From Candidatus Uhrbacteria bacterium (GTDB taxonomy: Bacteria; Patescibacteriota; Patescibacteriia; UBA9934; GWF2-40-263): a stretch of 64,000 bases of DNA. Below are positions 2,133-28,156 of this stretch, piece by piece. The position numbers were made by a program, and so were the translations under genes. Under the pieces are notes generated by a model. The model made no database searches, was not told where the DNA came from, and saw only the letters and a program-made list of their open reading frames with translations. The stretch is from assembly GCA_016844925.1 (NCBI GenBank), contig JAERTI010000018.1, forward strand, positions 1,221 to 65,220. Direction: 5' to 3'. Position 1 is the first letter of the stretch; each line of letters starts with the position of its first letter.

Positions 2133-2831
2133 TTATCCTGTGACGTGTGTCTCTTCTTCAAACTGAATCTTATTAATATCTGAAAGCCCCTCAGCCGCAA
2201 ACACATCTGGGTTATACACATTGTAATAAAGCTCGATGAGACTCTCTGTATCAAGCCGAGCGCTCTCAAGGCCCATGGAGTTAAGCTGTCCCTGAGCAAT
2301 ATCCACACGCCGCCCAAGTTGCTCGATGCGATCTGCCAACTGCTTCTTGTTCAACTTTGCCGCCGCCGCAGGTGAGAGCGCCTCAGAAAGACGTGTCCAG
2401 AAGTTCTTCTTTTTATTTGTCAGCGGGTCATACGGAATCACCAGATAGAACATCTTTTGCATGATTTGCCCAAGCTCAACAAGCTCACCCACAAAGTTTC
2501 GGTAGTCGGCAATCTGTGAACGCAGCAGATCATTTTGAATCGTTCTCTCCTGTTCCCTTAGACGGCTCATATACCCGTCAATGTTCATGCGCCTGGACTG
2601 AATCACGACCTGCACCGGGTACTCAAGACTATTCAAAAATGTCATGTACGCCTGAATAATCGCCTCCTGCTCCTCACTCGATTTCAGAGCAAAGTTAATA
2701 CTCGCAACAAGAAGTACCGCGCGCACGGTTCCATCTTTGAGGAGCACCATGTCATCACGAATCTCCGCGATGTCGAGATACTTCACCGTAGAGGGTCCTG
2801 GTTTTGGTTTTGCGAGTTTCTTTGATTGCAT
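2133..2831 (-). CDS. hypothetical T4SS-associated protein; its N-terminal segment resembles the first module of Gram-positive VirB4 proteins
   Basis: 232 aa. The motif YLDIAEIRDDMVLLKDGTVRAVLLVASINFALKSSEEQ resembles the extreme N-terminus of Gram-positive VirB4 proteins such as TcpF. The ORF ends 5 nt before the VirB4 start, in a different frame. Confidence 0.4.
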   Translation of the reverse strand: MQSKKLAKPKPGPSTVKYLDIAEIRDDMVLLKDGTVRAVLLVASINFALKSSEEQEAIIQAYMTFLNSLEYPVQVVIQSRRMNIDGYMSRLREQERTIQNDLLRSQIADYRNFVGELVELGQIMQKMFYLVIPYDPLTNKKKNFWTRLSEALSPAAAAKLNKKQLADRIEQLGRRVDIAQGQLNSMGLESARLDTESLIELYYNVYNPDVFAAEGLSDINKIQFEEETHVTG

Positions 2832-11841: not shown

Positions 11842-13746
11842 CTACTTGATCCCCGTACATCGCCCGAAGCGGATGTTACAGGTGATCTTCACCGGTGTGC
11901 CTTGGGCGACCGTGATGGTGCCCTCTTGGGGGGTATCTCGACCCTCCATGGTCACCAAGGCGCTGTAGACGCCCGGTGGCACATTGACCGACTGGCCGCC
12001 ACGCGTGAGCATGTACGTTCCACCCGGACCACTGAGCTTCACCGTGGCAACGGTTCCGCCCGGCAGCGTCAGTTTCACATCGACCCCAGTGGAGGCAAGC
12101 GACTCAACCACCTCGGGTTCGACTTCAGCCACCACCGGCTCCTCGACCTCACCACGAGACTCGGGAACCACTTCGGGCTCGCGAACCTCGGTTGGTGCAG
12201 GAAGCTCGAGCACTGGGTCAGGGGTGACCTCTAGGGTCGGTTCGACCTTCAACGTCACCTCGGGCGGATCGGACGTGGGCGGGACCAGCGGCTCAGTGAC
12301 CACCTCGACGATCTCCGTCGTCTCATCCGCAGGTGGCGTTTCCACCACCTCTGATGTGGACATCGTAGAGATGACCCAGAGGAACCCTCCCCCGAGCAGT
12401 GTCATGACCACGACCATCAGTGCGATCGCTCGCACGGGTCGCCGACGATCCTCACGCTCCTGCTCCTCTCGGAGCCGTCGCGCTTGCTCGGTCTCGAGCA
12501 CCCCCTCATGGAAGGTGCCCATGGGCAGGGCACCGTCGGCCCGCGTGGCATCACCCACGACCTCCGAATCCCAGGGATTCAAGGTCACACCGGCCGCCTG
12601 TTGCCTGATCGGCCCGGGAGGCAAGTGTGGCACCCCGCTGACATGCGAGGACAGACCATCCTGTGCGGAAACCGCATCGGGCATCGCGCGCGTTGGCGAC
12701 GGACCATCGTCCGGGTGCGGAGCAATGGTCATGCCACCGCGATGAGCGGCGACATCCGACGGTGACACCTCCGATCCCACCGCTACGCTGGGCAGCTCAT
12801 GAATCGACTGTGTCTCCTGAAGCTTGCGCGCAAGCAGAACCTTGGGAGCGGTTCCCAGCCCCGGCAAGTCTTCCGGGTCTTCGGGCAGAGACGCCATCTG
12901 ATGATCGAGCTCGTCGATCATCTCCTGCGCGCTCTGGTAGCGCGTGTCCGGATCCTTGGCCGTGGCCATGAGAATCACGCACTCGAGCTCGCCAGGAATC
13001 CCTTCCAGAAGGGCCTCGTCGGCCTCGCGCTGGAAGTAGAAGTCGTTGCCGCTGCGTGGGTACTCCCCTCGCAACAGGCACCAGAGCATGACCCCCACGG
13101 CGTGGATGTCCGCTCGATGATCCGCTGAGGATGCATCGATCTTCTGCTCAGGCGACATGAACGCAAGCGTTCCCATCGCCGTCCCCTCGCGCGTCAGGTG
13201 GGCCGTTCCCTCCTGCAGCTTGGCGATGCCGTAGTCGGCCACCTTGACCTGACCGCGCTTGGTGAAGAGCACGTTCTCGGGCTTGATGTCGCGGTGATAC
13301 ACCGGCGAGGAGTTCCCATCGGGATCCACGAAGGTGTGACCGAAGGCGAGCGCGCGCAGCACATCGATGGTCACGCGAGTCGCCTGGCGCGGACTGAGCG
13401 CCCCGAAGGCCTCCATGTGATCCTTGATGGTTCCGCCTGAGCAGTACTCCATCAAGATGTACGGCATGCCGTTCACCGTGTCGACGTCGTAGACGAGCAG
13501 AACGTTCGGGCTTCGCAACATCTCCATGACGCGCGCTTCCCGAATGAACCGCTCCCGCATGACCGTCGACCGCAGGTACGGACCATGCACGAGCTTCATC
13601 GCCCTGAGGGTCCGAAGCTCCTTGTGACGCACGAGCGCCACATAGCCAACTCCACCCGCCCCAAGAATCTTGACGACCTCGAAGCGCTGGAGCGGAGCGA
13701 TCATGCGCTGCAGTTCTTCTACAGCAGCCTGTTCGTCAATGTCCAT
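11842..13746 (-). CDS. Hanks-type Ser/Thr protein kinase (PknB-like) with one transmembrane helix and an extracellular PEVV/E-rich repeat domain; GC-rich
   Basis: G-loop GAGGVGYV, AMK lysine, catalytic loop HRDIKPENVLF, DYG and SPEQ motifs. A TM helix lies in VRAIALMVVVMTLLGGGFLWVI, followed by PE/VV repeats. The likely start is MDIDEQ. Confidence 0.85.
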   Translation of the reverse strand: MDIDEQAAVEELQRMIAPLQRFEVVKILGAGGVGYVALVRHKELRTLRAMKLVHGPYLRSTVMRERFIREARVMEMLRSPNVLLVYDVDTVNGMPYILMEYCSGGTIKDHMEAFGALSPRQATRVTIDVLRALAFGHTFVDPDGNSSPVYHRDIKPENVLFTKRGQVKVADYGIAKLQEGTAHLTREGTAMGTLAFMSPEQKIDASSADHRADIHAVGVMLWCLLRGEYPRSGNDFYFQREADEALLEGIPGELECVILMATAKDPDTRYQSAQEMIDELDHQMASLPEDPEDLPGLGTAPKVLLARKLQETQSIHELPSVAVGSEVSPSDVAAHRGGMTIAPHPDDGPSPTRAMPDAVSAQDGLSSHVSGVPHLPPGPIRQQAAGVTLNPWDSEVVGDATRADGALPMGTFHEGVLETEQARRLREEQEREDRRRPVRAIALMVVVMTLLGGGFLWVISTMSTSEVVETPPADETTEIVEVVTEPLVPPTSDPPEVTLKVEPTLEVTPDPVLELPAPTEVREPEVVPESRGEVEEPVVAEVEPEVVESLASTGVDVKLTLPGGTVATVKLSGPGGTYMLTRGGQSVNVPPGVYSALVTMEGRDTPQEGTITVAQGTPVKITCNIRFGRCTGIK

Positions 13747-14683
13747 GCCCGTCGTCCTCCTCTGATGGGGTGGTGAACTCGACGGTCGGCTTGCCCGTAC
13801 CGTCACGACCGAAACGCACATGCATCCCGATCCCGACACCGGCCAGGGCCAACCCTGCCGAGCCCGAGACGACAGCCGCCGTCCCGAATCCGTTGGTGTT
13901 CCGCTCGTAGCGAGCGAGATCCGCGTCCGGTGTGGACGGATCCTCGTACTGCGCCTTCTGGCTCATGGCGATGCCGTAGAAAACACCACTGGTGAGTACC
14001 GTGACTCCCGCCACGGCATACCACGGACGCGGGTCCTTCAAAACCACCGTCCGAGAGACACCCAGATCCTCAGCCGTGAGGCCATGGGGGTTCTTCTCGT
14101 CTGCGTGCCAATGCGGCAGCGCTTCACCGGGTTCGATGTAGCGCGTCTCCAGCCAGAGATCACCAGGCCCGTAGACCTGAACGATCACCGGCGTCTCACT
14201 GAACCGAGGCGCGTTGCGCACCCCCGAGACCATGACGTAGCCACCCACCGGTGGGTAGACCGGCTCGGCCTCGCCATCGGGCACATGCGCCGCCTCCTCG
14301 TACAGAGCGATGAGCGGGTGCCCAGCGTCGATGATGTCCTCGGGGAACTTGTACCCCGGGTCCAGACGGAGGCTGGCATGCAGCTCCGCGACCACGCGAG
14401 CATCGTTCCCGTTGATGAACGCCTCGAGCGCCATCAACCGATGGAAGCTCGCCGCCCCTTGGCGGGTCAGCTTCTCGCTCAGGCACGGAAGAATCTCCGT
14501 GCGCGCCAGGCTCGACTGCGTCAGCAGTGCATCGGCGTCCAGTTCCCCGAACGCCGCGACCCCGACCTCGACCGTTTCCACGAGCTGCTCGCTCGTCGTG
14601 GGCTCCTCACAGGCAGCAATGGCCGCCCGCGGAACCAGTAGGCTCAGCAGGGCAACCCCGCAGCAGATGATCAGCTTCATCAC
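13736..14683 (-). CDS. secreted or membrane-anchored hypothetical protein, co-transcribed upstream of the kinase; GC-rich
   Basis: N-terminal signal peptide MMKLIICCGVALLSLLVPRAAIAACEE. Hydrophobic segments lie near the C-terminus. It overlaps the kinase start by about 11 nt. Confidence 0.5.
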   Translation of the reverse strand: MMKLIICCGVALLSLLVPRAAIAACEEPTTSEQLVETVEVGVAAFGELDADALLTQSSLARTEILPCLSEKLTRQGAASFHRLMALEAFINGNDARVVAELHASLRLDPGYKFPEDIIDAGHPLIALYEEAAHVPDGEAEPVYPPVGGYVMVSGVRNAPRFSETPVIVQVYGPGDLWLETRYIEPGEALPHWHADEKNPHGLTAEDLGVSRTVVLKDPRPWYAVAGVTVLTSGVFYGIAMSQKAQYEDPSTPDADLARYERNTNGFGTAAVVSGSAGLALAGVGIGMHVRFGRDGTGKPTVEFTTPSEEDDGHGH

Positions 14684-14854: not shown

Positions 14855-14919
14855 TTTGACTAATTTTTGACACGTTTGACCATGCAGCTATTGACAAAAC
14901 GCCGAAAACTCCGTCTAAT
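14855..14919 (+). promoter_or_regulatory. four TTGAC direct repeats followed by a sigma70-like promoter (-35 TTGACA 14891-14896, 17-nt spacer, -10 TCTAAT 14914-14919) in the divergent intergenic region upstream of the lipoprotein gene
   Basis: Motifs read directly from the sequence. The region is AT-rich and sits between two GC-rich divergent transcription units. Confidence 0.35.
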
Positions 14920-15092
14920 GTCTATAGATAGCTCTTTGCAACCGGCCAAACTCATGGCCTTGGCTGCAGGCACAAGGGAGGAATTTTTTATTCCCTTGTG
15001 CCTGCGGCCGAAAGGCCAAAGCCCGCGGTGGGCTAGCAGGATCAACTTCCCGCACTCCACACACGTGGAGACGGGGCAGAAAGGAGTCAGAG

Positions 15093-15794
15093 ATGACCCG
15101 CTACCTGAGCCTGCTCGCGCTGGCCCTGCCCCTCGCCTTCGTGGCGGGGTGCGTGGACGGCACCGGCGAGAACCCCGACGACTGTGTCGACGGCGACTGC
15201 AGCGACACCAACGACTGCACCGACGGCGACTGCGTGGAGAACGGAGAGTTCCTCGCCCGCCTGCACCTGCTGGCGCCCAACGGCGACCACGCGGACTACA
15301 TGGCCGACGCCCCCGACGATCTCGTCTTCATCGGTGACTTCAAGATCGGCACCGAGACCCACGAGAACACCAGCGAGTGCTGGCACGAGGCCCACGCCCC
15401 GGAGAACGACCTCTTCGTCTCCTTCTCCGGCGACGGCTTCAGCTGCGCCCTGCAGTACGTGGACATCGTCTCGGGCGACAACGGCTACGACGTCGACGTC
15501 CTCTGGGACGGCGTCGCCCCGTGGATCGACGAAGACGGCGGCCCCACCTGCGCCCTCGACCCGGACGGTGAGTACACCGGCCACGATGTGCGAACCTCGC
15601 ACAACGATGACGGAGAGGTCGTCATCCACATCGACACGGGACAGACCGCTCCGATCGTCGGCAACGAGTTCTACTTCGAAGAGGACGGCGTCCTGCTCGA
15701 AGGCTGGGTCGCGTGGGATCTCTCGGAGATCTACTACCACGAGATCACTGCCGCCGGCAACGAGCGGGAGCAGACCATCTACCTGGAGGACTAA
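15093..15794 (+). CDS. acidic Cys/Asp-rich lipoprotein; GC-rich
   Basis: Signal peptide with lipobox LAFVAGC. RBS AGGAG lies 8 nt upstream. N-terminal DCxDGDC repeats. Confidence 0.6.
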   Translation: MTRYLSLLALALPLAFVAGCVDGTGENPDDCVDGDCSDTNDCTDGDCVENGEFLARLHLLAPNGDHADYMADAPDDLVFIGDFKIGTETHENTSECWHEAHAPENDLFVSFSGDGFSCALQYVDIVSGDNGYDVDVLWDGVAPWIDEDGGPTCALDPDGEYTGHDVRTSHNDDGEVVIHIDTGQTAPIVGNEFYFEEDGVLLEGWVAWDLSEIYYHEITAAGNEREQTIYLED

Positions 15795-15836
15795 CCCTCC
15801 TCCGCCCAGTCATAAGCTGGGCTATTTATTTTGAAT

Positions 15837-15870
15837 CAAAAAAAGGACAGGTTCACCCTGTCCTTTTTTT
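15837..15870. terminator. bidirectional intrinsic terminator shared by the plus-strand lipoprotein gene and the minus-strand giant gene
   Basis: A-run, then stem GGACAGG/CCTGTCC, then TTTTTTT. The stop codon of the giant gene lies in the T-run. Confidence 0.6.
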
Positions 15871-18800
15871 ACTCTGGAGTCACGCTAATGTATCCATCCC
15901 AGTTTATCCATGGGTTAGATAAGTTACCGTAGTCGAATTCAGCTTCACAACTTCCAGATCCACCCCCCGGACAACCGTCGATATTACACTCATCAACCTC
16001 GGTTATTCCATCACTCAATACTCCCGTGAAACATTCGGTGCCTGTATCTGTTTCCTCACTGTCACAGTACCCAGTACACCAACCCCAGTTATCCATCACG
16101 TGAATACGTGGCTGGAAGACACAAGCTTCGTTTTCAACACATGGTGAGTTTACCAGCCGACCATCATCTTCAAAGTTACAAACCCTTCCCGCTATCTGCA
16201 AGTCATTCAATCGACCCTGCGTACACACGTAGTCATGTGTGAAGGTCACATAACTTGAGGAACAAGCATCGGCACTGTTGCCAAACTCATCGTTTGCAGC
16301 CGTTCCATCCTGACACTCATCCTGATTGGAAATCGGATTGATTCCACGATAGTTCTTGTAGAAGTTATCATCAGCTGTGGAACCACTCTGTGACCCAGTA
16401 CCCCAGGCAACATCTCCCGTGATACTCGTAAAGTCATCACCCCAGTCCACCACCATACGTCGAATTGGCATGTGGTTTGTATCTGCGTACGCGTAGAAGC
16501 TCACTGGCGCACGGTAGCTGCCCTCAGCCGAGATCTCACCACCTGTAAGCTCATCAACCGTGAAGGAATCCTCAGCCCCCTCAAAACACTCTGAGCCGTT
16601 ACAGTCTCCAATAGCAGCAATATGTGGAGCCTCACCATCGGTATCATAGAGATTGTTCCAAATCCAATCTCCGTACCCCTCATCATCCAACTCATCTATG
16701 CCAAGGAGTTCCCAACTACCAAACGGCTCGTTATCAAACGCCCCATCAAGACCGCCAGTGCTTATGTCGGCAGCACCGTCGTACCCATCGTCACTGAAAA
16801 CAGCAAGCCCGTAGATTCTTCCAAAAATCTGTGACAATCGACTGATAGCATCCTCTTCATCTTCTGACTCAATAAACGAATATTCAGGGGCCTCTCCTTC
16901 TGCCAGACATGTCGCACCAGTAAGCTGACCATCCGAGGTTGCAAAGCGCACTTGGCAGTAGTTCAGCACACAATGTGCGTCTGTGTAACAAGCTCCATCG
17001 TTTATCTCATCGCCATCCGAATCACCACCACCGTCGTATTCTCCTCCATCACATGTGCTCACACAATCATTCCCTGATCCGCAATAATCATGATCACCAT
17101 TACTGTCATAATCATACAAATCGCAAGTGTTACCACTGTTAGAACCACCATCACAAACACCCTCTAAATCCTCTCCTCCGCAAGTAATTTCCCTGTCATT
17201 ATCATTATCCCAGTTACACTCACTTGGGTCTGTAGAACCGTAATCATCATTGTCATAACACAAACAATCTTCACCGTCTTTACACCAATCACTAAACACG
17301 GTCCCGCTCACCTGAATCGAAACTTCGTAGAACGCTCGGGCATGCGCACCGCTTGATGAGCTGATTGAATAGTCCGTGGGACATGAGTCACCAACATCCG
17401 CTGGCGCTGGCTCCTGCGAATAATCGTCCATCTCACACATCACAGCTTCATGTGGGAATGGATCAACGTATGCCGCCAAATTTTGATAATCATCTGCTTT
17501 TCCGAACTGTGCATACTCCGTTGTGTTGGAATAGCTGAAATCTGTACCCGTTGGTGTGATGGTGTAACGATCCGAACCCGTTGCCCAAAGCCTATCCGTA
17601 TAAGCTGCGTTATACGTCTTGAACGGCAAGAAATCATTATCTTCCAAAGTTTTCGTTGACACTTGTGCCAAGGAAGTACAAACAGCCCGAGGTCGGAAAT
17701 CAAAGACTAACTCATAATACCCTTTTTCGTTTGTCCCTCCTGTTTGATAACGCTCTTCTAACTCTGCAATATTTGCACGTGGAGAGTAAAACTCGTCTGC
17801 ATTTCCTCCATCAGCAACACTTAACACTCCACGAGTGAAACAGTCATTATAATAACTCCAAGCTGTTCCGAAGTCAGTGGAGTTCATGACATATACACGC
17901 GCGCTTGTCTCGTAGTCCGTTCCGATAGACCAATGGTCACCAACATTATTAATAGCATACGAGTAGGCCGTTTCCGCACCGCCATAGTTCAAATCGATAT
18001 CAAGCGCCACGTCCGGCGTCAGACACCTCTCATCTGTATGACCATCTGTTGTATTTGTCTTATAAGACAACTTCGGAACACAGAAGAATGGACAATCATC
18101 TTCTGCAGAAGCTGTACATCTATTGTCCCAAGACTGATCTCCACAACCTGTCATGACGCCAAAGTACCCATCAGGACACCAGGCAGCAGCGATACAGTCA
18201 TCTTCCCCACTACCCACAGACGTGTTTGAAGCCTCATCTTTAAAACTCTCAAAGTCGCTATCGTTACAGTTCAAGTCCTGAACCTCCGCACACCCAATAC
18301 CTGTCGTTCCAACGCCGTACCCCATCGCAATATCCGCGCAGTAGTACGTGTCCTGCGGTGCATACCCCGCACTCGTGTACTTCGCATACAGGTCCGTCGC
18401 ACCGGTCAACTGATCAACCGGTAGCCATGAGAGACAAGCCTGATCCTCTGTGTCGGATGATCCAAGGGTCTGAATAGAGGTATCGCGCTCAATACAATAT
18501 CCGTGCCAACCGCTCATGGTGGAGATCTGTGTTGCAAACTCGCAGGTTCCCGCCTTATCGGCCGTGCTACAGTCATCGTCGTTAATACAGGCAATGCCGC
18601 TGAAGTTACCCCCTGTACAGACTCCCAATGGCACCTCATCGTCCTCCCCTTGAGGGAAGCTACTGCCAGATGGGTGATACTGATAGGCTGCTCCGCTACC
18701 GTACTCAACCTTGTCATAGGAACACAGACAATCGGTTGGATTTCCATCGTTATCCAAGGCACAAACCGTAGCATCCTGGAATCCACTGAGGTACGTGTAT

Positions 18801-21800
18801 GGCAGTGACGACTGATCCAAGTTGCTGGTTCCCTGTGGTAATTCAAAGGCCGTGGAGCTAGGCATCTCTCCATCGTCGTCGATATTTCCATCGCTATACT
18901 TCACCCAGTCATACACCACATCCACTGGGAATGGTGAATCAATCTCAGGATACCCACGGCAGGACTGCTCGCGAGCATTATCTACATTCAACGCATCAGC
19001 CAATCCATTGGCATCACGGTCTGTGATATCTGTAAGACAGCTATTATTAAAGCAGGTTCCCACTACAGATGTTGAAGCTGGGACACACTCCTGCTGTGTA
19101 CCACAAGCCTCTTCCCCGTCGCCATCCTCATCATCAGTGGCAACACACGCCTCGCGATTATCTACATCACTTGTGAGCACATCTACACAGACGTACTGTC
19201 GCGGATCACAGATAGGCGTTGAAACAACGCCACCAGCCGTTACACCAATACAGTCGGTATGCGTTGTGCCGTCGGCCTCATAAAGATCTGGGTTACAAGA
19301 ACAGTCTCCTGAGGTACAGGTATCACCCGTTGCCTGACAGTATCCAACCACACAGGCTTCATCAGAACAGTCGTCATTGTCTGAGCAGGAGACGCCATCA
19401 CCGCCACAGAATCCAACACGACACTCTCCCCCGTTTCCAACACCTCCGCGGTCAATCTCGCCATCGCCGTCATCATCAATCGGCTCAGTTGAGTCACAGG
19501 CACCCGCGTTGTAAACCAAGCGGTAGTCTGTATCAGTAGTATTTGCACAATCGTAATGACAGTACCCAGTTCCACTCTCACAAACACCGTCACCATTCTC
19601 ATCAACACAGTCACAACCACCGTAATCTGCATCAATACACTCTAGGTCAGTGTTACAGGAAGTAACCGTTGTTGAAGACTCATCAACTTCACAGTCCGTG
19701 AACGCATTACACGCTGACGGCAAGTAATTATCGTTCAAAATAATATTCCCTGCCGTAGACTGACAGTAAGATGCTGCTTCAATGTTGAACTGGTTATAGT
19801 GCTCAATCGGTAACTGGTTTGGGATCGTATTTCCAGAGAGTTCAGTACCATTCCAGGTCACGTCGCGGCTTGCATAATCGCCGATCGTCAAGATTTCCAC
19901 ATCACGACTCTCCCAAGCAGTACAAATCGCTTCATCACCTTGAACCTTTCCAGCGACACACAAATCGATGGAATCACAGATGCGATCGTACTGACTGGTC
20001 TGAGAGTTCCAGCTCGTCTTAGAGCTATCACAGGCGAGCCATGCGCTACAGGTGCGATCACGATTCACTTTCAGCACTTCATTCACATCGTTAGAAAGAC
20101 GATAGGTCTCCATGGCGTCCATGCCATAAGTGGCACCGTCGAGTGAGGCGTTATCAAACACTGTCTCACCAACTTCCCACACGTTCGAACAGACACCAGA
20201 AGCCTCTTCCCCATCATCTGTGGTGATGATTGGGCAATCTGTATCACCCAAACAAGAACGCTCAAGATACGTATCTGAGAATCCTGTACGGTCGTACGCT
20301 TGCGCAGAACCTGTGTCGATACTGTCGCCACTTTCTAACTCATAGACACAGCGGCGCATACATAGATCTACCGTGTCCTCCTGACTAGAGCCCAAACCGT
20401 CTTCTACTCCATAGAACTCTGCGTCTGCCTCGGAAATACTGAACACAGCAGACCCTTCAACAGCACAGGTAATTGGGTCTACAAGTGAGTTCGGTGACTC
20501 GCCATAGAAGGTATCGGCATGAACAGATGTTACATAACTAACACTAGCGTTGTGTGAAAGATCTGAATTGGTGGTGTTGTAAAACAAACCACAACCCATC
20601 TTCTGACTCACCTGACCTTCACATTTTTGTGTATCTGAGAGTGTTTCCTCATCAAGAAGCTCATCGTTTGTGAAGTAATAACTGGTTCCATAGGAGTAGA
20701 CACCATTGGTATCCACCACATCGACAAACTCGGTACACATGTCATAAGCAGGCTCACACTGCGCTACCCATCCATCATAATCATCGTCACCGTTCTGCCA
20801 GACCTTGAACGTGTCTCCACCTTCAATGACAAAACTGTCGGCATTCACATCAAATACCCCATCACCATCATCATCGTTCCAATAACATGGTTCGTCTGTT
20901 CCGGTACGGAACCAACCATCGTAAGACTGATTATCTAGCGCAACACTTGTCTTGTACTCACAAGACTTATCAAGCGGATCTTTAAAGTAGAAGTTTCCGC
21001 TCTCATTAGAACTCCACTCCTCACAGAACAACGCCTGGTGGTCACAGAGGATGTTGTCGTAACTGGCTGGCAAATCAATATAATACTCGCTCTCAAATCC
21101 GGTCACCTCTGTCTGGACCTGATTATAGGTTGGGTTTCCTACCTCCGTACAACCCATAGCAGAAGAGAGGCACTCAACATCATTACTTAGCACTAAGTAC
21201 ACTGGAGTATCCCCCTTAACAATACGTGTCTCAGGTCCATAGACGATTCCAAAACCGCTCTCGATTGGGAGTGGTAGCTCGAATGTTTGCTCAGCATTAA
21301 ACGTACAATAAGACGTTCCCGCTGTAATGGTACAAAGTGTCTCACCCTCATACTCACAGTCCGTGTTAGACGTCACTACTTCCCCGTCCGTGAGATCATC
21401 TGAAGCATCCGCCGTGTAGACACAACGAGCATTAAAGACTTGTGCGTACTCGCTCTCTGAGTTGTGTGTATTGTAGAGCCCCTCACAACCAATCACCTCT
21501 TCATTACAAATGTTTGTAAACTGGTACAAGTCAGCGTCATTTCCATTGTGATCGGTGTACGCCTCACAACCAAGGTAGAACTGATCCGAGTCAGCGCCGG
21601 CTGGTGTCTGGTCACACGTGGACGGCACAACCCAGGAATCCTTAATAACCGTCACGTTCTCCTCGGTCTGCTTAAGGGTGATGTTATCGATGTAGAACTC
21701 GTCACTGCTGTCAGTGGTAAATCGAAGGATGGCGTTCTCATCGAAATCATCAAACTCGCTCGTGTCGAGCGGCCCGAGACTATAAAGCTGCCAGGAACCA

Positions 21801-24800
21801 GAAAGCGTGACGGGGTCAGCACCAGAAGTCTCCGCAAGAGGATCATTCATGTCATGCTCGTCTCCTGCTCCACCCTCTTCAATAAAATTCACCGTCAGTT
21901 CACCAGAACCCTTTGCCCAAAAATCAACAATGAACGTCTTGCCCCCTACCAACTCATCGGTCAGAGGTCCGCAACTTTCTTCACCATCGGAAATAATACA
22001 ACTCTCGTCCGCTGTTCCATCGCTGTCGACATCGTTCTCCACATAACAACCAGAATCTTCCACAGTTCCACCGACGCTTGTACAGGTGGTGTCGTCATCA
22101 GCATCGTAGGTCGCTGATGTATCTGTGCTGTCGAGATAAATCTGAACAATGTCGAACCCAGCGGTTCCTGTGGTATTTGTAACAGACAGCGAGTGGCCAT
22201 CTGTGGCAACGGATTCGTTAGAAATAGCCAGAGACTGCGTACCGCTTGTATCGGCAATCACGAAATCCTCGTATGTACCACCCTCAAAGGTCTCATCCAA
22301 AATGTCGGTCGCATTACGCCCAGAACCACCCGTGTACTCACGACATCCGCTCTGACCAGCTGGACACTCAACAGACTCTTCGGCAAGCACGTAATATCGG
22401 CAGAATCCCTGCGCTGTCCAGTACCCACCAGAGTCCTCACAGTCCGTCTCATTGGAGTCGTCCATGCGGTATGGCGTACAGGCATTGTCAACAGAAATGG
22501 TTGTCGAGTGCAGACGATAGTGCGCATTACCCTCTGAATCGAAGTACTCACGACAATCTGGATTCTCAAAAATGTCGTCGTGCTCATCACAGTCGTCATT
22601 ACTCCACACATCCTGATTCATCAACGCATTGCGATCATTACACACCACCTCATCCTCGGCCGTCATGGAAACGTGTACACACGGCGCGTTCTCTGGATCT
22701 GTTTCCTGGAACCCGGAACCTGTTGATGAGAGATCAAATGTGTCTCTGGATCCTGTGTAATTCGACTGCAGCAAGTACCACGTATTCAACTGGTACCCCT
22801 CGTTATCTGACCCCTCCCACGTAAAGAAGGTAGCTGGCGTGTTGTTCGCCGCAGTGCCATCGGCAATCGTCTCAGTCAGACAAGAACGTGTGTCAGTAAA
22901 GTATTCTGTCTGCTCTCCCCCTTCTGCCACAGCACCAAGAGAGGTAAAGGCATCACAACCAACATACTGTTCACTACAGGTAGCAGCGCTATCAGCAATA
23001 AAGTAAAGCGGGAAGGATTCTGCTTCACGGTCCGTAGCCTCCTGCTTATAGGTTGTGTAACCAACACACTCAGATGGACACTCATCAAGCTCAGAAATAA
23101 TCGCTGGGACAGATGGATCACCATCCTCTGGAGTATAGAGACTACAGCCAACCTCCTGAGCACTACAGACCTGAGCATAATCATCACACCCTGCCGGATC
23201 ATCAGCCCCACCGGTACAACCCAAGTAATCTGGGGCAACTTTGTAATAAACAACACTCGTCGACGTGCTGTAACCCTCTGTATAAGTATTTACATCTTCA
23301 CCCAGCTCGAGCTGAACGCCATCAAGAGCAATACCACCAGTAACGATAGCTATGTGCACATAAGATGTGTCTTCCGGAATAGTTACCGTACAATCATGCC
23401 TTGCCCAATCACCACCAGAAAGCTCGTCACTTGTTGGGTCAAATGTCATCAAATACGCACTTCCAAACGTACCGCAGTAATCATTACTTGTATCGTATGA
23501 AAGCCCTGAAACAGAAAGAGAATTCCCATCTTCATCGTAGGAGACAAGTGACATGAATCCCCCAGTCGAAGTTGATCCACTCAACTTGACACTCACACTG
23601 AACGTATAAAAATTACCCGGAGCTACATCGATAAACTGCTTAAAGACGTCTCCACTTCCATCAAAGCTATACGAGCCGTATTGGGCATCTCCCTCAAGAA
23701 TCGCTCCAGTAGCAACGACATCAAACAACCAATCATCAGGAAGGTCATCACCATCTACATCCTCCTCAAAACTCGCGTTCTTAACCGTGTTTAAGGTTAG
23801 CGTGTCTGAAAACTCAATTAACTGCGTACAACCACCATCTGTATCCGCACATTCCTCCGCATCATGTGTGAGGTAAATACGATCCTCATACGCATAGGAG
23901 TCGTAACTATAGCTTTCGCCAGAATCGGAAGTGTAGGAGTAACTTGCACGTGCTTCAACATCACCAGACGTATTCTGGTATGCCCAGTCGTCATCTCGAT
24001 CCGCTGTTTCATAGACCTCCCCTCCTGGGAGCCAGGCGTATTCATCATCGGACGTATCATCAGCTGTCCCCGCGTCATCATAAAGTTTCTGTGTGCGGTA
24101 CCAGCGACAGCCAGCATTGTCCTGACCACAGACACTGTAGTCCACTGTATTTACCAGGTAGTCGACAGCATCTCCAGTTTCTGTGTTGCTAAAGGACAAA
24201 CAAGAAGCGTACTCGGCCGGACACTCGCTTCCACGGAAACGCCAGACATTCTCTTCTTCTACACAGTAACCATACCCATCAGTACAGTTCCCGTCGTTAT
24301 CTTCACCAATACAACTCGGTGCGTCTGCACAATACGTCAGACGACCAGCTGTTTGAGTACCGATTCGAATCTCTCCGTTCACTACGGCACGACACTGACT
24401 ATCTGGATACTTGAGCACCCAGTTCGGATCAATCAAATGACACCATTGCGTACCCGAACCTTCAGGGCCAATATCACCATCTTCTGTACACGTATCGAAA
24501 CCATCAATCACATCCTGCAGCGTGGCGTCGCCATCGCCATTTCGAAGTGCTGCGAGCTCCCAACCAATAGGTATCACGCGCGCCTTACGCAACTTCACCA
24601 AGTTTCCATAACAAAAACCGTAAGTATAGCAATAGGGGTCTTGGTTTGAGGCCTGCTCATCAGGTCCAATCAAGAGCCAATCTCCGTTAATCAACCCTTC
24701 ATCGATCGCCTCTTGCAGGGTAATAGCTGCCCCCGACCCTCCACGGGACACAGCCGCGAGGAAGTTAGCATCCATGACACAATTGTTGATTCCCCTGTTT

Positions 24801-26005
24801 GTCACCCCTTCGGCAATACAGACAACAAACTCAGAAAGGGCATTGTATTCAATCGTACGAATAGGATTTGTTGCAAGAACATCCGCAAATCGCTCTTGTG
24901 CTGCCTCACGTCCTCCAGTACTCACACCCTCTACATCAAATGGGTCAAACTCGTAACCATCCTCCTCAAACAAACCTGTATAGACACGATTCATTAACGT
25001 TGAGAGTAGTGTGTTTGTAAACGTAGAAGCGGTCGTCAAAGCCAGTCCCCCAATCATCTCCTTCGCATTCACCAAATCACCAACATTAATCTTTGACTGG
25101 TCACCATCAACTTTCGCCAACTCATCTTCAAAATCTTTCTGCAACGTCTCACTTGGCGTTTTAACGTTTCCAGTAATGAATCCGGTTACGTTTTTATAGG
25201 TACTCTCATTACGCTGTAAAAACTGAAGCAACTTCTGCTCGTGAACCTTTTGGTTAATCGCAATGTTAATACGCAAAGAAGCAGAGAGTTCATTTTTTCC
25301 AGGCTTCAAAGACTCAGCAAACTTAGAAAGAATAGCCTCTTGGCGTGCCTCCGGCGACCCAATGGTGGCAAACGAGTCAGAAATAAACCCTTCCCAATTA
25401 GCTCCAACCTCCAGAATGTCACACTTAGGTTCCTCTGGTTGATACTTCTGCTTAATACCGATGGCCAGTGCCAAATCGAGAATAGGCTTGTTTGCCCCAG
25501 GATCACAAAGATTAAACTCAACACCCAATTCCTCAGAAGAAAGTTCAGAAAGAATACCAACCGCCTCTCCCGCAACCTCCAGTCCGAGTTGTGCGAAAGC
25601 ATCGGCCGGCTCTGTTTTATAGAAAAGAGATTCCTGTCCAACACCACCGGAAGCAATCGCTACAGCAGCCTCATAAGCCAAACGATTCAAGACAAACTGA
25701 GAAAGGTTCAAAAGCGCTTGAATCAATGCGATGCGGAACACGGGCGACACCATTTTTTCACCCACTGTTTTAAGGTTGTTCTTCAACCCTTCAGGGGGAC
25801 ATACCGCTGCACCAGGAGACGTTGCCACACACGCACCAACCGCCGAACCAGCTGCCGCCTCACCACCAGCAAAAATCTGTTCAACGTCCTGAGCAAGCAC
25901 CTGCTGGTGAGAAGCAAACAAACCTACGGAAACCAGTCCTAGTACAAAAACGGCTGCCAGCGCAGAGGAAATAATTCGCTTCGTTTTTTGATTGCTGTTC
26001 AACAT
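15869..26005 (-). CDS. giant (3378 aa) secreted Cys-rich and Asp-rich extracellular protein with thrombospondin-type-3-like calcium-binding motifs
   Basis: Uninterrupted 10.1 kb ORF. N-terminal signal/anchor ALAAVFVLGLVSVGLFA. There are hundreds of Cys residues. DxDxDG-type motifs include DDDGDGEIDRGG and DSDGDEINDG. No recognisable catalytic domain was found. Confidence 0.8.
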   Translation of the reverse strand: MLNSNQKTKRIISSALAAVFVLGLVSVGLFASHQQVLAQDVEQIFAGGEAAAGSAVGACVATSPGAAVCPPEGLKNNLKTVGEKMVSPVFRIALIQALLNLSQFVLNRLAYEAAVAIASGGVGQESLFYKTEPADAFAQLGLEVAGEAVGILSELSSEELGVEFNLCDPGANKPILDLALAIGIKQKYQPEEPKCDILEVGANWEGFISDSFATIGSPEARQEAILSKFAESLKPGKNELSASLRINIAINQKVHEQKLLQFLQRNESTYKNVTGFITGNVKTPSETLQKDFEDELAKVDGDQSKINVGDLVNAKEMIGGLALTTASTFTNTLLSTLMNRVYTGLFEEDGYEFDPFDVEGVSTGGREAAQERFADVLATNPIRTIEYNALSEFVVCIAEGVTNRGINNCVMDANFLAAVSRGGSGAAITLQEAIDEGLINGDWLLIGPDEQASNQDPYCYTYGFCYGNLVKLRKARVIPIGWELAALRNGDGDATLQDVIDGFDTCTEDGDIGPEGSGTQWCHLIDPNWVLKYPDSQCRAVVNGEIRIGTQTAGRLTYCADAPSCIGEDNDGNCTDGYGYCVEEENVWRFRGSECPAEYASCLSFSNTETGDAVDYLVNTVDYSVCGQDNAGCRWYRTQKLYDDAGTADDTSDDEYAWLPGGEVYETADRDDDWAYQNTSGDVEARASYSYTSDSGESYSYDSYAYEDRIYLTHDAEECADTDGGCTQLIEFSDTLTLNTVKNASFEEDVDGDDLPDDWLFDVVATGAILEGDAQYGSYSFDGSGDVFKQFIDVAPGNFYTFSVSVKLSGSTSTGGFMSLVSYDEDGNSLSVSGLSYDTSNDYCGTFGSAYLMTFDPTSDELSGGDWARHDCTVTIPEDTSYVHIAIVTGGIALDGVQLELGEDVNTYTEGYSTSTSVVYYKVAPDYLGCTGGADDPAGCDDYAQVCSAQEVGCSLYTPEDGDPSVPAIISELDECPSECVGYTTYKQEATDREAESFPLYFIADSAATCSEQYVGCDAFTSLGAVAEGGEQTEYFTDTRSCLTETIADGTAANNTPATFFTWEGSDNEGYQLNTWYLLQSNYTGSRDTFDLSSTGSGFQETDPENAPCVHVSMTAEDEVVCNDRNALMNQDVWSNDDCDEHDDIFENPDCREYFDSEGNAHYRLHSTTISVDNACTPYRMDDSNETDCEDSGGYWTAQGFCRYYVLAEESVECPAGQSGCREYTGGSGRNATDILDETFEGGTYEDFVIADTSGTQSLAISNESVATDGHSLSVTNTTGTAGFDIVQIYLDSTDTSATYDADDDTTCTSVGGTVEDSGCYVENDVDSDGTADESCIISDGEESCGPLTDELVGGKTFIVDFWAKGSGELTVNFIEEGGAGDEHDMNDPLAETSGADPVTLSGSWQLYSLGPLDTSEFDDFDENAILRFTTDSSDEFYIDNITLKQTEENVTVIKDSWVVPSTCDQTPAGADSDQFYLGCEAYTDHNGNDADLYQFTNICNEEVIGCEGLYNTHNSESEYAQVFNARCVYTADASDDLTDGEVVTSNTDCEYEGETLCTITAGTSYCTFNAEQTFELPLPIESGFGIVYGPETRIVKGDTPVYLVLSNDVECLSSAMGCTEVGNPTYNQVQTEVTGFESEYYIDLPASYDNILCDHQALFCEEWSSNESGNFYFKDPLDKSCEYKTSVALDNQSYDGWFRTGTDEPCYWNDDDGDGVFDVNADSFVIEGGDTFKVWQNGDDDYDGWVAQCEPAYDMCTEFVDVVDTNGVYSYGTSYYFTNDELLDEETLSDTQKCEGQVSQKMGCGLFYNTTNSDLSHNASVSYVTSVHADTFYGESPNSLVDPITCAVEGSAVFSISEADAEFYGVEDGLGSSQEDTVDLCMRRCVYELESGDSIDTGSAQAYDRTGFSDTYLERSCLGDTDCPIITTDDGEEASGVCSNVWEVGETVFDNASLDGATYGMDAMETYRLSNDVNEVLKVNRDRTCSAWLACDSSKTSWNSQTSQYDRICDSIDLCVAGKVQGDEAICTAWESRDVEILTIGDYASRDVTWNGTELSGNTIPNQLPIEHYNQFNIEAASYCQSTAGNIILNDNYLPSACNAFTDCEVDESSTTVTSCNTDLECIDADYGGCDCVDENGDGVCESGTGYCHYDCANTTDTDYRLVYNAGACDSTEPIDDDGDGEIDRGGVGNGGECRVGFCGGDGVSCSDNDDCSDEACVVGYCQATGDTCTSGDCSCNPDLYEADGTTHTDCIGVTAGGVVSTPICDPRQYVCVDVLTSDVDNREACVATDDEDGDGEEACGTQQECVPASTSVVGTCFNNSCLTDITDRDANGLADALNVDNAREQSCRGYPEIDSPFPVDVVYDWVKYSDGNIDDDGEMPSSTAFELPQGTSNLDQSSLPYTYLSGFQDATVCALDNDGNPTDCLCSYDKVEYGSGAAYQYHPSGSSFPQGEDDEVPLGVCTGGNFSGIACINDDDCSTADKAGTCEFATQISTMSGWHGYCIERDTSIQTLGSSDTEDQACLSWLPVDQLTGATDLYAKYTSAGYAPQDTYYCADIAMGYGVGTTGIGCAEVQDLNCNDSDFESFKDEASNTSVGSGEDDCIAAAWCPDGYFGVMTGCGDQSWDNRCTASAEDDCPFFCVPKLSYKTNTTDGHTDERCLTPDVALDIDLNYGGAETAYSYAINNVGDHWSIGTDYETSARVYVMNSTDFGTAWSYYNDCFTRGVLSVADGGNADEFYSPRANIAELEERYQTGGTNEKGYYELVFDFRPRAVCTSLAQVSTKTLEDNDFLPFKTYNAAYTDRLWATGSDRYTITPTGTDFSYSNTTEYAQFGKADDYQNLAAYVDPFPHEAVMCEMDDYSQEPAPADVGDSCPTDYSISSSSGAHARAFYEVSIQVSGTVFSDWCKDGEDCLCYDNDDYGSTDPSECNWDNDNDREITCGGEDLEGVCDGGSNSGNTCDLYDYDSNGDHDYCGSGNDCVSTCDGGEYDGGGDSDGDEINDGACYTDAHCVLNYCQVRFATSDGQLTGATCLAEGEAPEYSFIESEDEEDAISRLSQIFGRIYGLAVFSDDGYDGAADISTGGLDGAFDNEPFGSWELLGIDELDDEGYGDWIWNNLYDTDGEAPHIAAIGDCNGSECFEGAEDSFTVDELTGGEISAEGSYRAPVSFYAYADTNHMPIRRMVVDWGDDFTSITGDVAWGTGSQSGSTADDNFYKNYRGINPISNQDECQDGTAANDEFGNSADACSSSYVTFTHDYVCTQGRLNDLQIAGRVCNFEDDGRLVNSPCVENEACVFQPRIHVMDNWGWCTGYCDSEETDTGTECFTGVLSDGITEVDECNIDGCPGGGSGSCEAEFDYGNLSNPWINWDGYISVTPE

Positions 26006-26008
26006 GGT

Positions 26009-26731
26009 TTATTCCGTTGACTGATCAACTTGCCCCCCCTCAGTTTCACTCACAACAAGATCATCAAACGCTCCTGTTTCTGACGACTCATCAACTACGG
26101 TATTGAAGAAGTCCACAAGCGTATCGTCATCAATGGCATTAAGTTCCCCCTCTTCCATTCCAGCCTCAATCAGCGCACTACGAATCTCTTCAATGGTTGC
26201 CTGCTTGAAAAAGTTCTCAATATCTTCTGCGCTATTAAACTGAATCTCTCCTGAGCTAAGAACTTCGTCATCTGTCACTCCATCAATGAGCCCGGCGGCC
26301 GCGTTGTCACCAGCGCTGACAACTTCAGAATCATCTCCGCCCCCATCACAATCACCATCCACCGGACAGTTTGGATTGTTTCCAGAAAAAACTTCTGACT
26401 TATCGTCGTATCCATCTGAATCAGAATCTTCTAAGTAGGGAGAAGTTTTGTAAACGTACAGCTCGTCATAATCAACCAAACCATCACCATCAGTATCCTT
26501 CGTCTTTGACTCCTCGAGCTCTCGGGCCTCACGCTCTGAGGAGGTTAAAAATTCTTCGCCGGTATAAAGATCGGCAATCTGTTGCTGGATGGGTCGATCC
26601 AGGTTTGCTCCAAACGACATGAAGCCGAGTACAACACCGCCAAACCCTAAAAACATCAAAAGGCCAAAAGCAACCTTTTGCTCCGGGCTTAGCACCACGG
26701 GCGGGCGATGTTTCACTCGTTGGGTGGCCAT
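26009..26731 (-). CDS. single-pass membrane protein with thrombospondin-type-3-like Ca-binding repeats; probable partner of the giant protein
   Basis: TM segment VAFGLLMFLGFGGVVLGFMSF. Motifs DTDGDGLVDYDE, DSDSDGYDD and CPVDGDCDGGGDD. Only 3 nt separate it from the giant gene start. Confidence 0.55.
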   Translation of the reverse strand: MATQRVKHRPPVVLSPEQKVAFGLLMFLGFGGVVLGFMSFGANLDRPIQQQIADLYTGEEFLTSSEREARELEESKTKDTDGDGLVDYDELYVYKTSPYLEDSDSDGYDDKSEVFSGNNPNCPVDGDCDGGGDDSEVVSAGDNAAAGLIDGVTDDEVLSSGEIQFNSAEDIENFFKQATIEEIRSALIEAGMEEGELNAIDDDTLVDFFNTVVDESSETGAFDDLVVSETEGGQVDQSTE

Positions 26732-26780
26732 AATCTTCTGAATTATTATAGCAAAACACCCAGGGAAACCCTAGGTGCTT

Positions 26781-27533
26781 TTACATTCTCTTGCTCAAAT
26801 TGTGGGTAAGTTCTTTCCAGTTATCGATCGTCAGGTCCTGCGCTCGGATCTTTGGGTCAAGACCCATCCCCTCAAGGACCTCTTTTGTCCCTGGACCAAT
26901 ATTTTTCTGGAGTTGTTTTCGACGAGAAGAAAAGCCCCTCTTGGCCACGGCAATCACGCTCTCAAGCGAGACGTTCTCCTTATTTTCTCGATATAAATCC
27001 AGTTGAATCACTGCTGAATCCACTTTGGGAATAGGGCGGAACGCTCCAGCTGGAACCTTGAACACTTTTTTGCACTGAGCATACAGCTGACACATCACTG
27101 ACAGCACACTCATAGCACCAGGGCCCGCCACGATTCTGTCAGCCACTTCTTTTTGAACAAGTAAAATCATCCTCGTGGGTGGATGCTCATGCGTCAGATA
27201 GCGCCGAAGAATGTCTGAGGTAATACTGTAGGGAATATTCGCCACAAGTTTATAGTCCCCTTCCGGAGGTGTTGTAACCAATGCATCCCCATGTACCACC
27301 TTCACGTGATCGCCAAACTGCTCCTTAAGGGGCTCTATCAACGAATCATCTGCCTCCACCGCCACAACCTTGGCCCCAGCCTCAACAAGCGCTTTTGTAA
27401 GCAGCCCCGTACCAGGACCGATCTCAAATACCGTCTCGCCTGATTGAATACCTGCGGCCGCGACAATTTTCTGCACAGCCGTCTCATCCACGAGCCAATT
27501 CTGGGAGTAGGATTTTTTTGCCTTAGGAAGCAT
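26781..27533 (-). CDS. rsmA: 16S rRNA (adenine1518/1519-N6)-dimethyltransferase
   Basis: KsgA motifs SQNWL, EIGPGTGLLT and VVAVEADDSL. Confidence 0.9.
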   Translation of the reverse strand: MLPKAKKSYSQNWLVDETAVQKIVAAAGIQSGETVFEIGPGTGLLTKALVEAGAKVVAVEADDSLIEPLKEQFGDHVKVVHGDALVTTPPEGDYKLVANIPYSITSDILRRYLTHEHPPTRMILLVQKEVADRIVAGPGAMSVLSVMCQLYAQCKKVFKVPAGAFRPIPKVDSAVIQLDLYRENKENVSLESVIAVAKRGFSSRRKQLQKNIGPGTKEVLEGMGLDPKIRAQDLTIDNWKELTHNLSKRM

Positions 27534-27535: not shown

Positions 27536-28156
27536 CTAAATCTCGATTGATCCCTGTCTCAATACCTCCGGATACCCATAATCATCCACGGCAACAATCG
27601 TTGACGGAAGCTCGGGTTCAAGTTCTCCCCCATCTAGATAGAAATCCGGACCCTCATCGAGCTGACCGCGAACACAGGCTGCTGAGTAACACACCTCCTC
27701 CCCAGAACGGTTTGCGCTCGTTGAAACAATTGGCGCTCCCAATCCCTCGGACAGGGCCTTGGCAACCGGATGTGACGTCACTCGAACTGCCACCGTTCCA
27801 CCCCTCACAACACCAGAAGACAACTCCCCCATCTCAGGAAGTACGAGTGTAAGTGGGCCCGGCCAGTGCTTCGATGCCAAACGTTCCAATCCACGAGGGA
27901 TTCCTGCGACAGCCTCGACCATCTCTCGTGAAGCCGCAAGGATCGGGAACGACTTTTCCTCCGGACGCCCTTTAAGCACCGCAACTTTTTGCACCGCTTC
28001 CTCATTGCGCGCGTCAGCAGCTAATCCATAGGCCGTCTCCGTAGGAAACACAACAACACCTCCTTGACGGAGGACCTGAACCGCTTCATCAATGTGCTGC
28101 TCTGAAATGTTCACACTATTTTTTCTGATACCACTTAATCGTCTTCTTGAGCCCAT
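27536..28156 (-). CDS. tsaC: L-threonylcarbamoyladenylate synthase (Sua5/YrdC family)
   Basis: YrdC-like motifs VVFPTETAYGLAADA, KGRPEEKSFPIL and SANRSGEE. Confidence 0.85.
   Translation of the reverse strand: MGSRRRLSGIRKNSVNISEQHIDEAVQVLRQGGVVVFPTETAYGLAADARNEEAVQKVAVLKGRPEEKSFPILAASREMVEAVAGIPRGLERLASKHWPGPLTLVLPEMGELSSGVVRGGTVAVRVTSHPVAKALSEGLGAPIVSTSANRSGEEVCYSAACVRGQLDEGPDFYLDGGELEPELPSTIVAVDDYGYPEVLRQGSIEI

Follow-up and report, generated by a model that had tools for sequence, protein, structure and literature searches.

A conserved gene pair for a small membrane protein and a giant cysteine-rich exported protein in Candidatus Uhrbacteria

The two-gene locus and its conservation

We analysed a 64,000-nucleotide stretch of DNA (hereafter the window) from a Candidatus Uhrbacteria relative, a member of the Patescibacteria or candidate phyla radiation (CPR) (assembly GCA_016844925.1, contig JAERTI010000018.1, positions 1,221 to 65,220). 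Here, we focused on two genes of its reverse strand. A giant open reading frame (ORF) of 3378 amino acids (aa) at 15869..26005(-) starts with ATG and runs without interruption, and a small ORF of 240 aa at 26009..26731(-), on the same strand, encodes a predicted single-pass membrane protein with its N-terminus inside. The stop codon of the small gene and the start codon of the giant gene are spaced by 3 nt (TAA-acc-ATG). The positions, sizes and spacing given in a preliminary description of this DNA agreed with the sequence.

All matches to the N-terminal 639 aa of the giant were hypothetical proteins, from Candidatus Uhrbacteria and other Patescibacteria, and contig ends had cut most of them to fragments. 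When one genome per species was scanned, a relative of the giant was found in 242 species genomes, and the best 80 of these 242 were almost all Uhrbacteria or Patescibacteria metagenome-assembled genomes, with one locus per assembly. The length of the orthologous frame was taken from 42 loci whose contig spans the whole gene. In these 42 other species the frame was open over 2984-3474 aa, and the orthologs aligned with the window giant over its full length at 34-66% identity, indicating that the giant ORF is a real gene under selection. When a profile of the N-terminal domain was searched exhaustively, representatives of 1404 clusters (50% identity) were recovered, most of them 2700-3800 aa long and 1147 of them at E <= 1e-30, while a search with the C-terminal 279 aa returned only fragments of the giant's own family. 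The sampled cluster members carried no name beyond 'hypothetical protein', and literature searches that included the Uhrbacteria papers found no description of the family. With hypothetical names throughout, an empty Pfam result and no paper found, the family is uncharacterised, as had been supposed. Separately, the giant frame was broken in seven loci (L002, L016, L023, L031, L040, L046 and L056), with 778-1532 aa to the first stop and the contig continuing beyond it; the seven may be sequencing frameshifts or real pseudogenes, and in L002 the pieces lie in tandem.

A homolog of the small gene was located directly upstream of the giant gene, on the same strand, in 78/82 related loci. The four others lie on contigs that end before that position, hence the proportion among informative loci is 78/78. 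For the reverse direction, the small protein was used as the query against metagenome contigs, and among the loci with at least 700 nt downstream (n = 60), the giant N-terminus followed right after the small gene in 57, with one more recovered by profile (58/60) and the remaining two unresolved. The synteny that had been proposed as a check on the pair was thus found in both directions. In a relative with ~21% overall identity and a giant of 3818 aa (P0127), HSP20, VanW and thioredoxin genes replace rsmA and tsaC, the upstream neighbours in the window, and a 242-aa gene with a thrombospondin type 3 (TSP3)-like product is retained 5 nt upstream of the giant. A Kerfeldbacteria contig (L164, JACRFO010000022.1, 2876-14752) carries tsaC, a major facilitator superfamily gene, rsmA and a homolog of the small gene with its C-terminal helical module duplicated, and then a colinear giant homolog. 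The latter is spread over ORFs of 1079, 784, 1412 and at least 398 aa, is without the first carbohydrate-binding module (CBM1) described below and ends its distal part in fn3/Big_7-type domains, a layout for which modular evolution at the distal end or assembly frameshifts could account. Taken together, these counts strongly support a near-obligate pairing in both directions, with the two genes forming a conserved unit.

We then considered the signals between rsmA and the pair. A 9-bp hairpin (CACCTAGGG-TTT-CCCTGGGTG, followed by TTTTG) was read from the sequence at 26757..26777(-), just after the rsmA stop, as a terminator-like boundary of the upstream operon; the hairpin falls outside the T-run rule of the terminator scan, and equivalent hairpins were present ahead of the -10 box in many related loci. 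An extended -10 motif, TGcTATAAT, lies at 26745..26753(-), 13 nt ahead of the ATG of the small gene. An exact TGnTATAAT occurred within 60 nt upstream of this ATG in 47/74 related loci, versus 0.28% of background windows, and its distance from the ATG was mostly 6-19 nt. No -35 box passed the consensus scan upstream of the small gene, and the generic promoter/terminator consensus scan called neither intergenic signal, so that the promoter assignment is drawn from the comparative count. An extended -10 promoter motif of its own is conserved ahead of the pair. With a hairpin and T-run and then TGnTATAAT at 6-19 nt from the ATG, the transcript would have at most a very short 5' leader, and terminator and promoter would be tightly packed. 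Moreover, most loci leave 1-7 nt between the stop codon of the small gene and the ATG of the giant gene, which suggests that translation of the two proteins is coupled.

Composition and domains of the two proteins

The giant has a net charge of -489 and is composed of 11.1% Asp, 7.5% Glu and only 4.1% Lys plus Arg. It contains 154 Cys (4.6%), so that the 'hundreds of cysteines' of the preliminary description was an overstatement. Across 42 species, 116/154 of these Cys were at least 90% conserved, and Cx5-6C pairs were enriched in the giant (32 versus 13.7 +/- 3.5 in shuffled sequences). Conserved Cys spacing had been proposed as a check; the conserved Cys, together with the Cx5-6C enrichment, fit a dense framework of predicted disulfides. 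The calcium motifs had been overstated as well. Five DxDxDG motifs were found, which is above chance (0.44 expected from shuffles), and no TSP3 match was returned by Pfam for the giant; each of the five sites was kept in only 2-9/42 orthologs, which themselves hold 0-6 copies. The pairing had originally been argued from calcium-binding repeats of the same kind in both proteins, and this basis found no support, as the repeats are not shared in any conserved sense.

The giant N-terminus is predicted to be a Sec-type signal peptide (aa 1-38; 25892..26005(-)), with K/R residues, a 21-residue hydrophobic core and then a cleavage site between VLA and QD. The small-x-A site and polar residues after the core were present in 41/42 sequences, in a region that is otherwise unconserved, from which we infer that the signal peptide is cleaved; the earlier term 'signal-anchored' is doubtful on the same grounds. 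The giant was also scanned for further hydrophobic segments and for LPXTG, and neither was found, so that the mature protein would be soluble unless held by something.

Along the chain, conservation was highest in a series of scaffold blocks (aa 400-640, 900-1050, 1150-1250, 1450-1500, 1650-1850, 2500-2550 and 3150-3350) and reached its minimum in three insert-rich stretches (aa 2100-2150, 2650-2700 and 2900-3050). A long-helix region at the N-terminus (aa 39-385; 24851..25891(-); conservation 0.36-0.57), whose helices were modelled by AlphaFold2 (AF2) at a predicted local distance difference test score (pLDDT) of 35-55, precedes the most conserved core (aa 386-645; 24071..24850(-); conservation 0.58-0.75). 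This core comprises a small alpha/beta domain and a Cys-stapled beta region (NLVKLRKARVIPIGWELAA, WCHLIDPNWVLKYP), reached a pLDDT of 80-92 over aa ~385-545, is the part that defines the ~1400 clusters, and gave no match in a fold search of the PDB. A first CBM_4_9-type jelly roll (aa ~738-905; 23291..23794(-)) is followed by a Cys-rich beta domain (aa 906-1234; 22304..23290(-); conservation 0.5-0.71), in which all Cys are at least 90% conserved and pLDDT is 80-92 over aa 985-1225, and by a second, paralogous jelly roll of the same type carrying a variable Cys-containing loop insert (aa ~1235-1447; 21665..22303(-)). The Cys-rich central region (aa 1448-2100; 19706..21664(-); conservation 0.36-0.69) keeps nearly all of its Cys and had no family matches. 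Beyond it lie a variable Cys-dense segment (aa 2101-2340; 18986..19705(-); 11 Cys/100 aa; conservation 0.19-0.44; gap fraction up to 0.59), a region with the block GWxGYCLERDTSIQ...LTWLPVDQL (aa 2341-2900; 17306..18985(-)) whose conservation peaks at 0.69 over aa 2501-2550, a lineage-specific Cys/Asp-rich insert (aa 2901-3050; 16856..17305(-); conservation 0.15-0.16; gap fraction ~0.6), and a C-terminal domain with the motifs VDWGD and FQPRxHVxDNWGWCTGxC (aa 3100-3378; 15872..16708(-); conservation 0.41-0.54).

The preliminary description had seen no recognisable enzymatic domain in the giant and named no other; this picture is incomplete, as two CBM_4_9-type modules were found. A look at the repeat architecture had also been proposed. 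Self-BLAST returned the identity match only, that is, no tandem repeats, and the single duplication was detected by profile-profile comparison of 160-residue windows (aa 801-960 versus 1361-1520, hhalign probability 94.9%). The duplicated unit is the carbohydrate-binding module (CBM). A 42-sequence profile searched against the PDB matched a CBM4 at module 2 (1gui, E 0.008) and a CBM16 at module 1 (2zew, E 0.1), and nothing besides CBMs. Pfam CBM_4_9 (PF02018; gathering threshold 25.9 bits) matched 12/15 full-length orthologs with a best E of 3.3e-11; module 1 excised from orthologs scored 37.4, 30.4, 27.4 and 25.9 bits, and module 2 of the ortholog L067 scored 27.2 bits, above threshold. The NCBIfam model for the gene transfer agent (GTA) head-spike fibre matched 4/15 orthologs.

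A first AF2 model of aa 1-639, made with a 15-sequence alignment, was poor (pLDDT 44.5); a second, of aa 36-1235 with 40 sequences, had a mean pLDDT of 65.9, with confident stretches at aa ~385-545, ~635-945 and ~985-1225. Foldseek against the PDB gave 2zew (CBM16) as the best match (E 1.7e-6, probability 1.0, target TM-score 0.70, local pLDDT ~80-94), a superposition that covers module 1 only, as the sole module inside the modelled aa 36-1235. Other PDB matches included 1gui, 4bj0 and 4xup and comprised CBM4, CBM22, CBM6, CBM61, CBM-like domains of phage tailspikes and Cry-toxin domains, and the matches among viral models were tail fibres, tailspikes and neck appendages with CenC-type CBMs. 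These profiles and models predict two paralogous CBM4/16/22-type jelly rolls in the giant, which would probably bind glycans. Conservation falls from 0.59-0.71 in the flanking scaffold to 0.37-0.46 in the two CBM segments.

The absence of a recognisable enzymatic domain, noted previously, was confirmed: Pfam and NCBIfam returned no catalytic family at E up to 1 for the window giant or for 15 orthologs, and there was no PDB sequence match. An NCBIfam match to RNA polymerase A'' (12 bits) was noise. The window giant and the 15 orthologs were likewise without BIg, Cadherin, VCBS or RTX matches and without SLH, CWB2 or any other known wall-anchoring module in Pfam/NCBIfam; dockerin and cohesin families (Pfam) were found in neither protein of the pair, and a PHROGs search of the giant gave no match. 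A polymorphic toxin was considered and rejected, with no toxin domain and a giant C-terminus that is conserved rather than variable.

In the small protein, a basic N-terminal tail precedes a predicted transmembrane helix (aa 17-44; 26600..26683(-); hydropathy peak 2.24) with the conserved motif EQKVAFxLLxFLGxGG. Two bacterial TSP3-type calcium repeats and a Cys pair follow at aa 76-128 (DTDGDGLVDYDELYVYKTSPYLEDSDSDGYDDKSEVFSGNNPNCPVDGDC; 26348..26506(-)). These are tandem DxDxDGxxDxxE loops with conserved acidic ligands, the consensus being DTDGDGLxDYDELYVYKTSPYLxDSDSDGxDDKxEVxSGNDPNCPxGKxC, and D79, D81, D83, D87, Y88, E90, D102, D104, D106, D110, E113, C122 and C128 were invariant in 25 sequences; a third DxDxDG of the window protein (aa 125) is unconserved. 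Against Pfam TSP3_bac (PF18884) the protein scored 14 bits (E 0.046), under the gathering threshold of 25 bits, and its orthologs had only 'faint' precomputed matches to this family. The TSP3 stretch matched the NCBIfam MtsD TSP3 model (cohesion protein) at E 3.8e-5 and aligned to a structure of the adhesin Bap, its best PDB sequence match, at E 0.012. The small protein is classed as TSP3-like on its motifs and not as a family member by score, and calcium binding is predicted for it. A variable acidic linker separates the TSP3 stretch from a C-terminal helical module (aa ~165-215; 26087..26239(-); IRxxLxxxGxxxxxLxxIxDExL) in which R184, G191 and D202 are invariant and whose PDB resemblance is limited to designed helical repeats. 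This module is a candidate docking surface for the giant.

Comparison with known systems and proposed function

Large, Cys-rich, exported and unannotated proteins have been described in CPR Peribacteria and proposed to serve in rigidity or attachment (PMC4736985). The giant comes from the same radiation and falls within this descriptive class, being longer than 1000 aa, with a signal peptide, a Cys content far above the bacterial norm and no functional annotation, a likeness in descriptive terms. The Peribacteria proteins form a multi-copy, strain-variable cluster of 20 proteins with an average of ~1655 aa and 7.2% Cys (Anantharaman et al. 2016, PMC4736985), whereas the giant, at ~3300 aa and 4.6% Cys, is kept across its lineage as one ortholog per genome and comes with two CBMs and a dedicated membrane partner. 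The dockerin-type giants of Omnitrophota, for which a role in cell attachment was suggested, are likewise giant extracellular proteins of ultra-small bacteria that combine TSP3/dockerin calcium motifs with carbohydrate-binding domains (West-Roberts et al. 2023, preprint 10.1101/2023.11.21.568195). However, those proteins have at least 30,000 aa, are highly repetitive and carry the TSP3/dockerin repeats inside the giant itself, while in our pair the giant is non-repetitive and the conserved TSP3 is on a separate 240-aa membrane protein. The pair shares its general kind with the giant surface proteins of these two groups of ultra-small bacteria, and it is set apart by a single-copy lineage-wide giant, a non-repetitive chain, a conserved Cys framework and calcium repeats on an obligately paired membrane protein.

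Other systems resemble the pair in part. Cellulosomes, with dockerin-cohesin contacts and CBM-bearing scaffoldins, offer a possible likeness in a cell-bound calcium-loop partner that holds a large CBM protein; this would be a functional analogy only, as recognisable dockerin and cohesin domains are absent. Bap, LapA, SiiE and the RTX adhesins are also very large, acidic, calcium-associated surface proteins, but they consist of tandem Ig-like repeats and are mostly secreted by type I systems or anchored by sortase. The giant, by contrast, has a Sec signal and a conserved Cys framework and shows no Ig-like array, no tandem repeats, no type I secretion or RTX signal and no LPXTG. Phage receptor-binding proteins and the GTA head-spike fibre share with it the CenC/CBM4-like jelly-roll module that they use on cell-surface polysaccharide; the likeness is restricted to this module, with no PHROG match and no phage context.

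We propose that the two genes form one constitutive operon which builds a cell-surface complex in a monoderm-like Patescibacterium. The 240-aa protein would insert into the membrane through its one transmembrane helix, N-terminus inside, and display two calcium-binding TSP3 repeats, the acidic linker and the conserved helical module outside. The 3378-aa protein would be exported by Sec, lose its signal peptide and, with no membrane or wall anchor of its own, fold as a succession of non-repeating domains cross-linked by ~58 or more conserved disulfides. The small protein would hold it at the surface by non-covalent, probably calcium-dependent docking. As a tentative guess, the C-terminal helices of the small protein pack with the N-terminal helices of the giant; the low monomer model confidence there fits a region that folds on binding. 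The two jelly rolls, which evolve faster than the scaffold, would bind polysaccharide on the surface of a partner or host cell, and the complex would act as a standing attachment and recognition device of the cell.

The reading we favour, at a probability of roughly 0.45, is a permanently displayed surface complex whose ligands are glycans of partner or host cells. It is favoured because phages use the same type of CBM to recognise cell surfaces, because evolution is faster in the CBMs and inserts than in the scaffold, and because a life attached to other cells is presumed for these organisms. A part for the giant in attachment to partner cells is plausible and gains support from its having two CBMs of the type used by phage receptor-binding proteins.

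Several points weigh against this reading. The contact between the two proteins is one that we infer. A universal single copy, constant length and housekeeping neighbourhood are unusual for host-specific adhesins, which as a rule consist of repeats, vary and occur in several copies. In the window giant itself, both CBMs stay below the Pfam threshold, with 18.5 bits (E 0.0027) for module 2 and no match for module 1. Wall polymers of the cell itself could be the ligand of the CBMs, the ~2100 residues beyond the structural model (aa 1236-3378) could hide an enzyme, and the long hydrophobic core of 21 aa might stay as an anchor, making a separate tether unnecessary. Moreover, the hosts of Uhrbacteria are unknown.

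The chief competitor, which we regard as somewhat unlikely, is a core protein of the cell envelope or coat (S-layer-like or within a wall-associated matrix) whose CBMs bind the cell's own peptidoglycan or secondary wall glycans. The two proteins would then form an anionic, calcium-bridged outer layer for envelope integrity and not for partner recognition. A gene that all sampled relatives have in single copy, with its length and Cys framework conserved, a strong-looking promoter motif of its own and prfA, tsaC, rsmA, groEL, yidC and nusA as neighbours, suits such a role, as does the strongly negative charge; in addition, CBM16-type modules are known in S-layer-associated proteins, and the top PDB match is annotated as an S-layer associated endoglucanase. 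On the other hand, the missing SLH, CWB2 and other wall-anchoring modules count against a coat, S-layer proteins known so far mostly have few Cys and are much smaller, and the faster variation of the CBMs and several inserts relative to the scaffold is easier to reconcile with external ligands that change than with a self ligand that does not.

It is quite improbable that the small protein is instead an export, folding or calcium-loading helper or a signalling partner, with the giant held by its own uncleaved N-terminal segment. The length of the hydrophobic core would allow this, and the tight spacing and strict co-occurrence suit a chaperone and its client as well as a tether; however, the conserved signal-peptide site after the core speaks for cleavage, and the conserved parts of the small protein are extracellular display modules with no known chaperone fold.

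A secreted machine for glycan processing or nutrient scavenging, with an unrecognised catalytic domain, CBMs that target the substrate and the small protein as tether or assembly factor, is less probable again. CBM4/16/22 modules are classically appended to glycoside hydrolases, the unmodelled part of the giant is large, and giant proteins of predatory nanobacteria have been implicated in cell-wall degradation (10.1101/2023.11.21.568195). Nevertheless, the family searches up to E 1 gave no catalytic family, the 42-sequence profile found only CBMs in the PDB, and PHROGs was silent.

A chance long ORF or a mis-assembled chimera, a doubt raised earlier through the possibility of an interrupted frame, has next to no probability, being refuted by the 42 independent assemblies in which the frame stays open over ~3000-3470 aa, with 34-66% identity along its full length. 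The locus is real, on firmer ground than a reading of the sequence alone could give, and its two-component architecture is well defined.

A bolder form of the partner-attachment reading appears unlikely when all its parts are taken together. The pair would be a lineage-defining, possibly essential host-recognition organelle of Uhrbacteria and relatives, in which a membrane stub bears a calcium-dependent TSP3/helical docking module that holds the giant as a disulfide-stapled 'cellular tail fibre' of 370 kDa, the C-terminal helices of the small protein bundle with the low-confidence N-terminal helices of the giant, and fast-evolving CBM faces and variable Cys-rich inserts set the host range by analogy with phage receptor-binding proteins. 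It would represent a new non-covalent system of surface display for monoderm-like bacteria, and docking of the giant on the small protein, if true, would by itself be a new way to display a protein on such a surface.

Uhrbacteria and most other Patescibacteria are uncultured, and neither their hosts nor the molecules that hold them are known. The locus is among the most obvious candidates for the physical interface of these cells with their surroundings, because ~11 kb of a very small genome is kept for it, once per genome in every relative that could be checked, with its own promoter, an exported giant predicted to bind glycans and a dedicated membrane partner. The giant could be targeted directly by metaproteomics, by antibody- or lectin-style labelling and by cryo-electron tomography, a ligand identified through expressed CBMs could point to the host, and the conserved N-terminal domain (~1400 clusters at 50% identity) is a convenient marker.

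Neighbouring genes and further observations in the window

The placement of the pair downstream of rsmA and tsaC, claimed in the preliminary description, was borne out by family matches. The rsmA/ksgA gene (26781..27533(-); TIGR00755, 228 bits) lies upstream of the small gene, and the Sua5/YrdC-type tsaC (27536..28156(-); TIGR00057, 168 bits) upstream of rsmA. A gene for an NAD-dependent epimerase and then prfA are also upstream on the same strand, and groEL, a Wzy_C protein gene, yidC and nusA are still further upstream. A functional tie of the pair to rsmA and tsaC was considered and rejected, as the hairpin and the pair's own promoter motif intervene and the pair persists without both genes in the locus L083; the link is positional only.

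On the other side, a convergent lipoprotein-like gene (15093..15794(+)) faces the 3' end of the giant gene, and a GC-rich hairpin with a T-run (15804..15822(+)) separates it from the giant stop, likely forming the end of both convergent transcripts. The downstream neighbourhood of the giant varies, with the Ser/Thr kinase and serS genes present in 0-1/82 related loci. Membership of the pair in the nearby VirB4/type IV secretion system (T4SS)-like cluster was rejected, since this neighbourhood is not kept among the 82 loci.

A VirB4/TraG-type P-loop ATPase (28..2127(-)) heads that cluster; next come three ORFs (2133..2831, 3278..5026 and 5032..7980) that matched no family, and then an M23 peptidase (8127..10061). 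This gene run (28-10061(-)) may be a monoderm-type T4SS as described for Patescibacteria (PMC12102498), and its position relative to the giant varies among relatives.

Within a window of ~50% GC, compositional islands were observed at 8001-10000 and 12001-16000. The GC content at third codon positions (GC3) was 0.81 for the M23 peptidase gene (8127..10061(-)), 0.76 for a Ser/Thr kinase gene (11842..13839(-)), 0.79 for an ORF at 13736..14683(-) and 0.93 for the convergent lipoprotein-like gene, against ~0.45 for the giant and the small gene. In four relatives (L003, L006, L011 and L015) the lipoprotein gene is also GC3-rich (0.84-0.89), with flanks of 45-55% GC, and its high GC3 is a conserved oddity and not a one-off transfer.

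Two genes with Ser/Thr protein-kinase domains (32892-34160(-) and 11842-13839(-)) were noted <20 kb apart in this reduced genome; one Ser/Thr kinase gene lies between the Wzy_C and groEL genes, where the relatives L001 and L002 have none. Another candidate surface protein, of 793 aa, is encoded in a 61% GC stretch at 49265-51646(+); it has seven FG-GAP repeats as well as four metal-binding motifs of the Cys-containing MopE type. Finally, a second giant ORF at 56123-63919(-), with a GTG start, encodes 2598 aa with repeat-like matches to Sarcoglycan_1 and DUF2345, and its sequence is unrelated to that of the 3378-aa giant.

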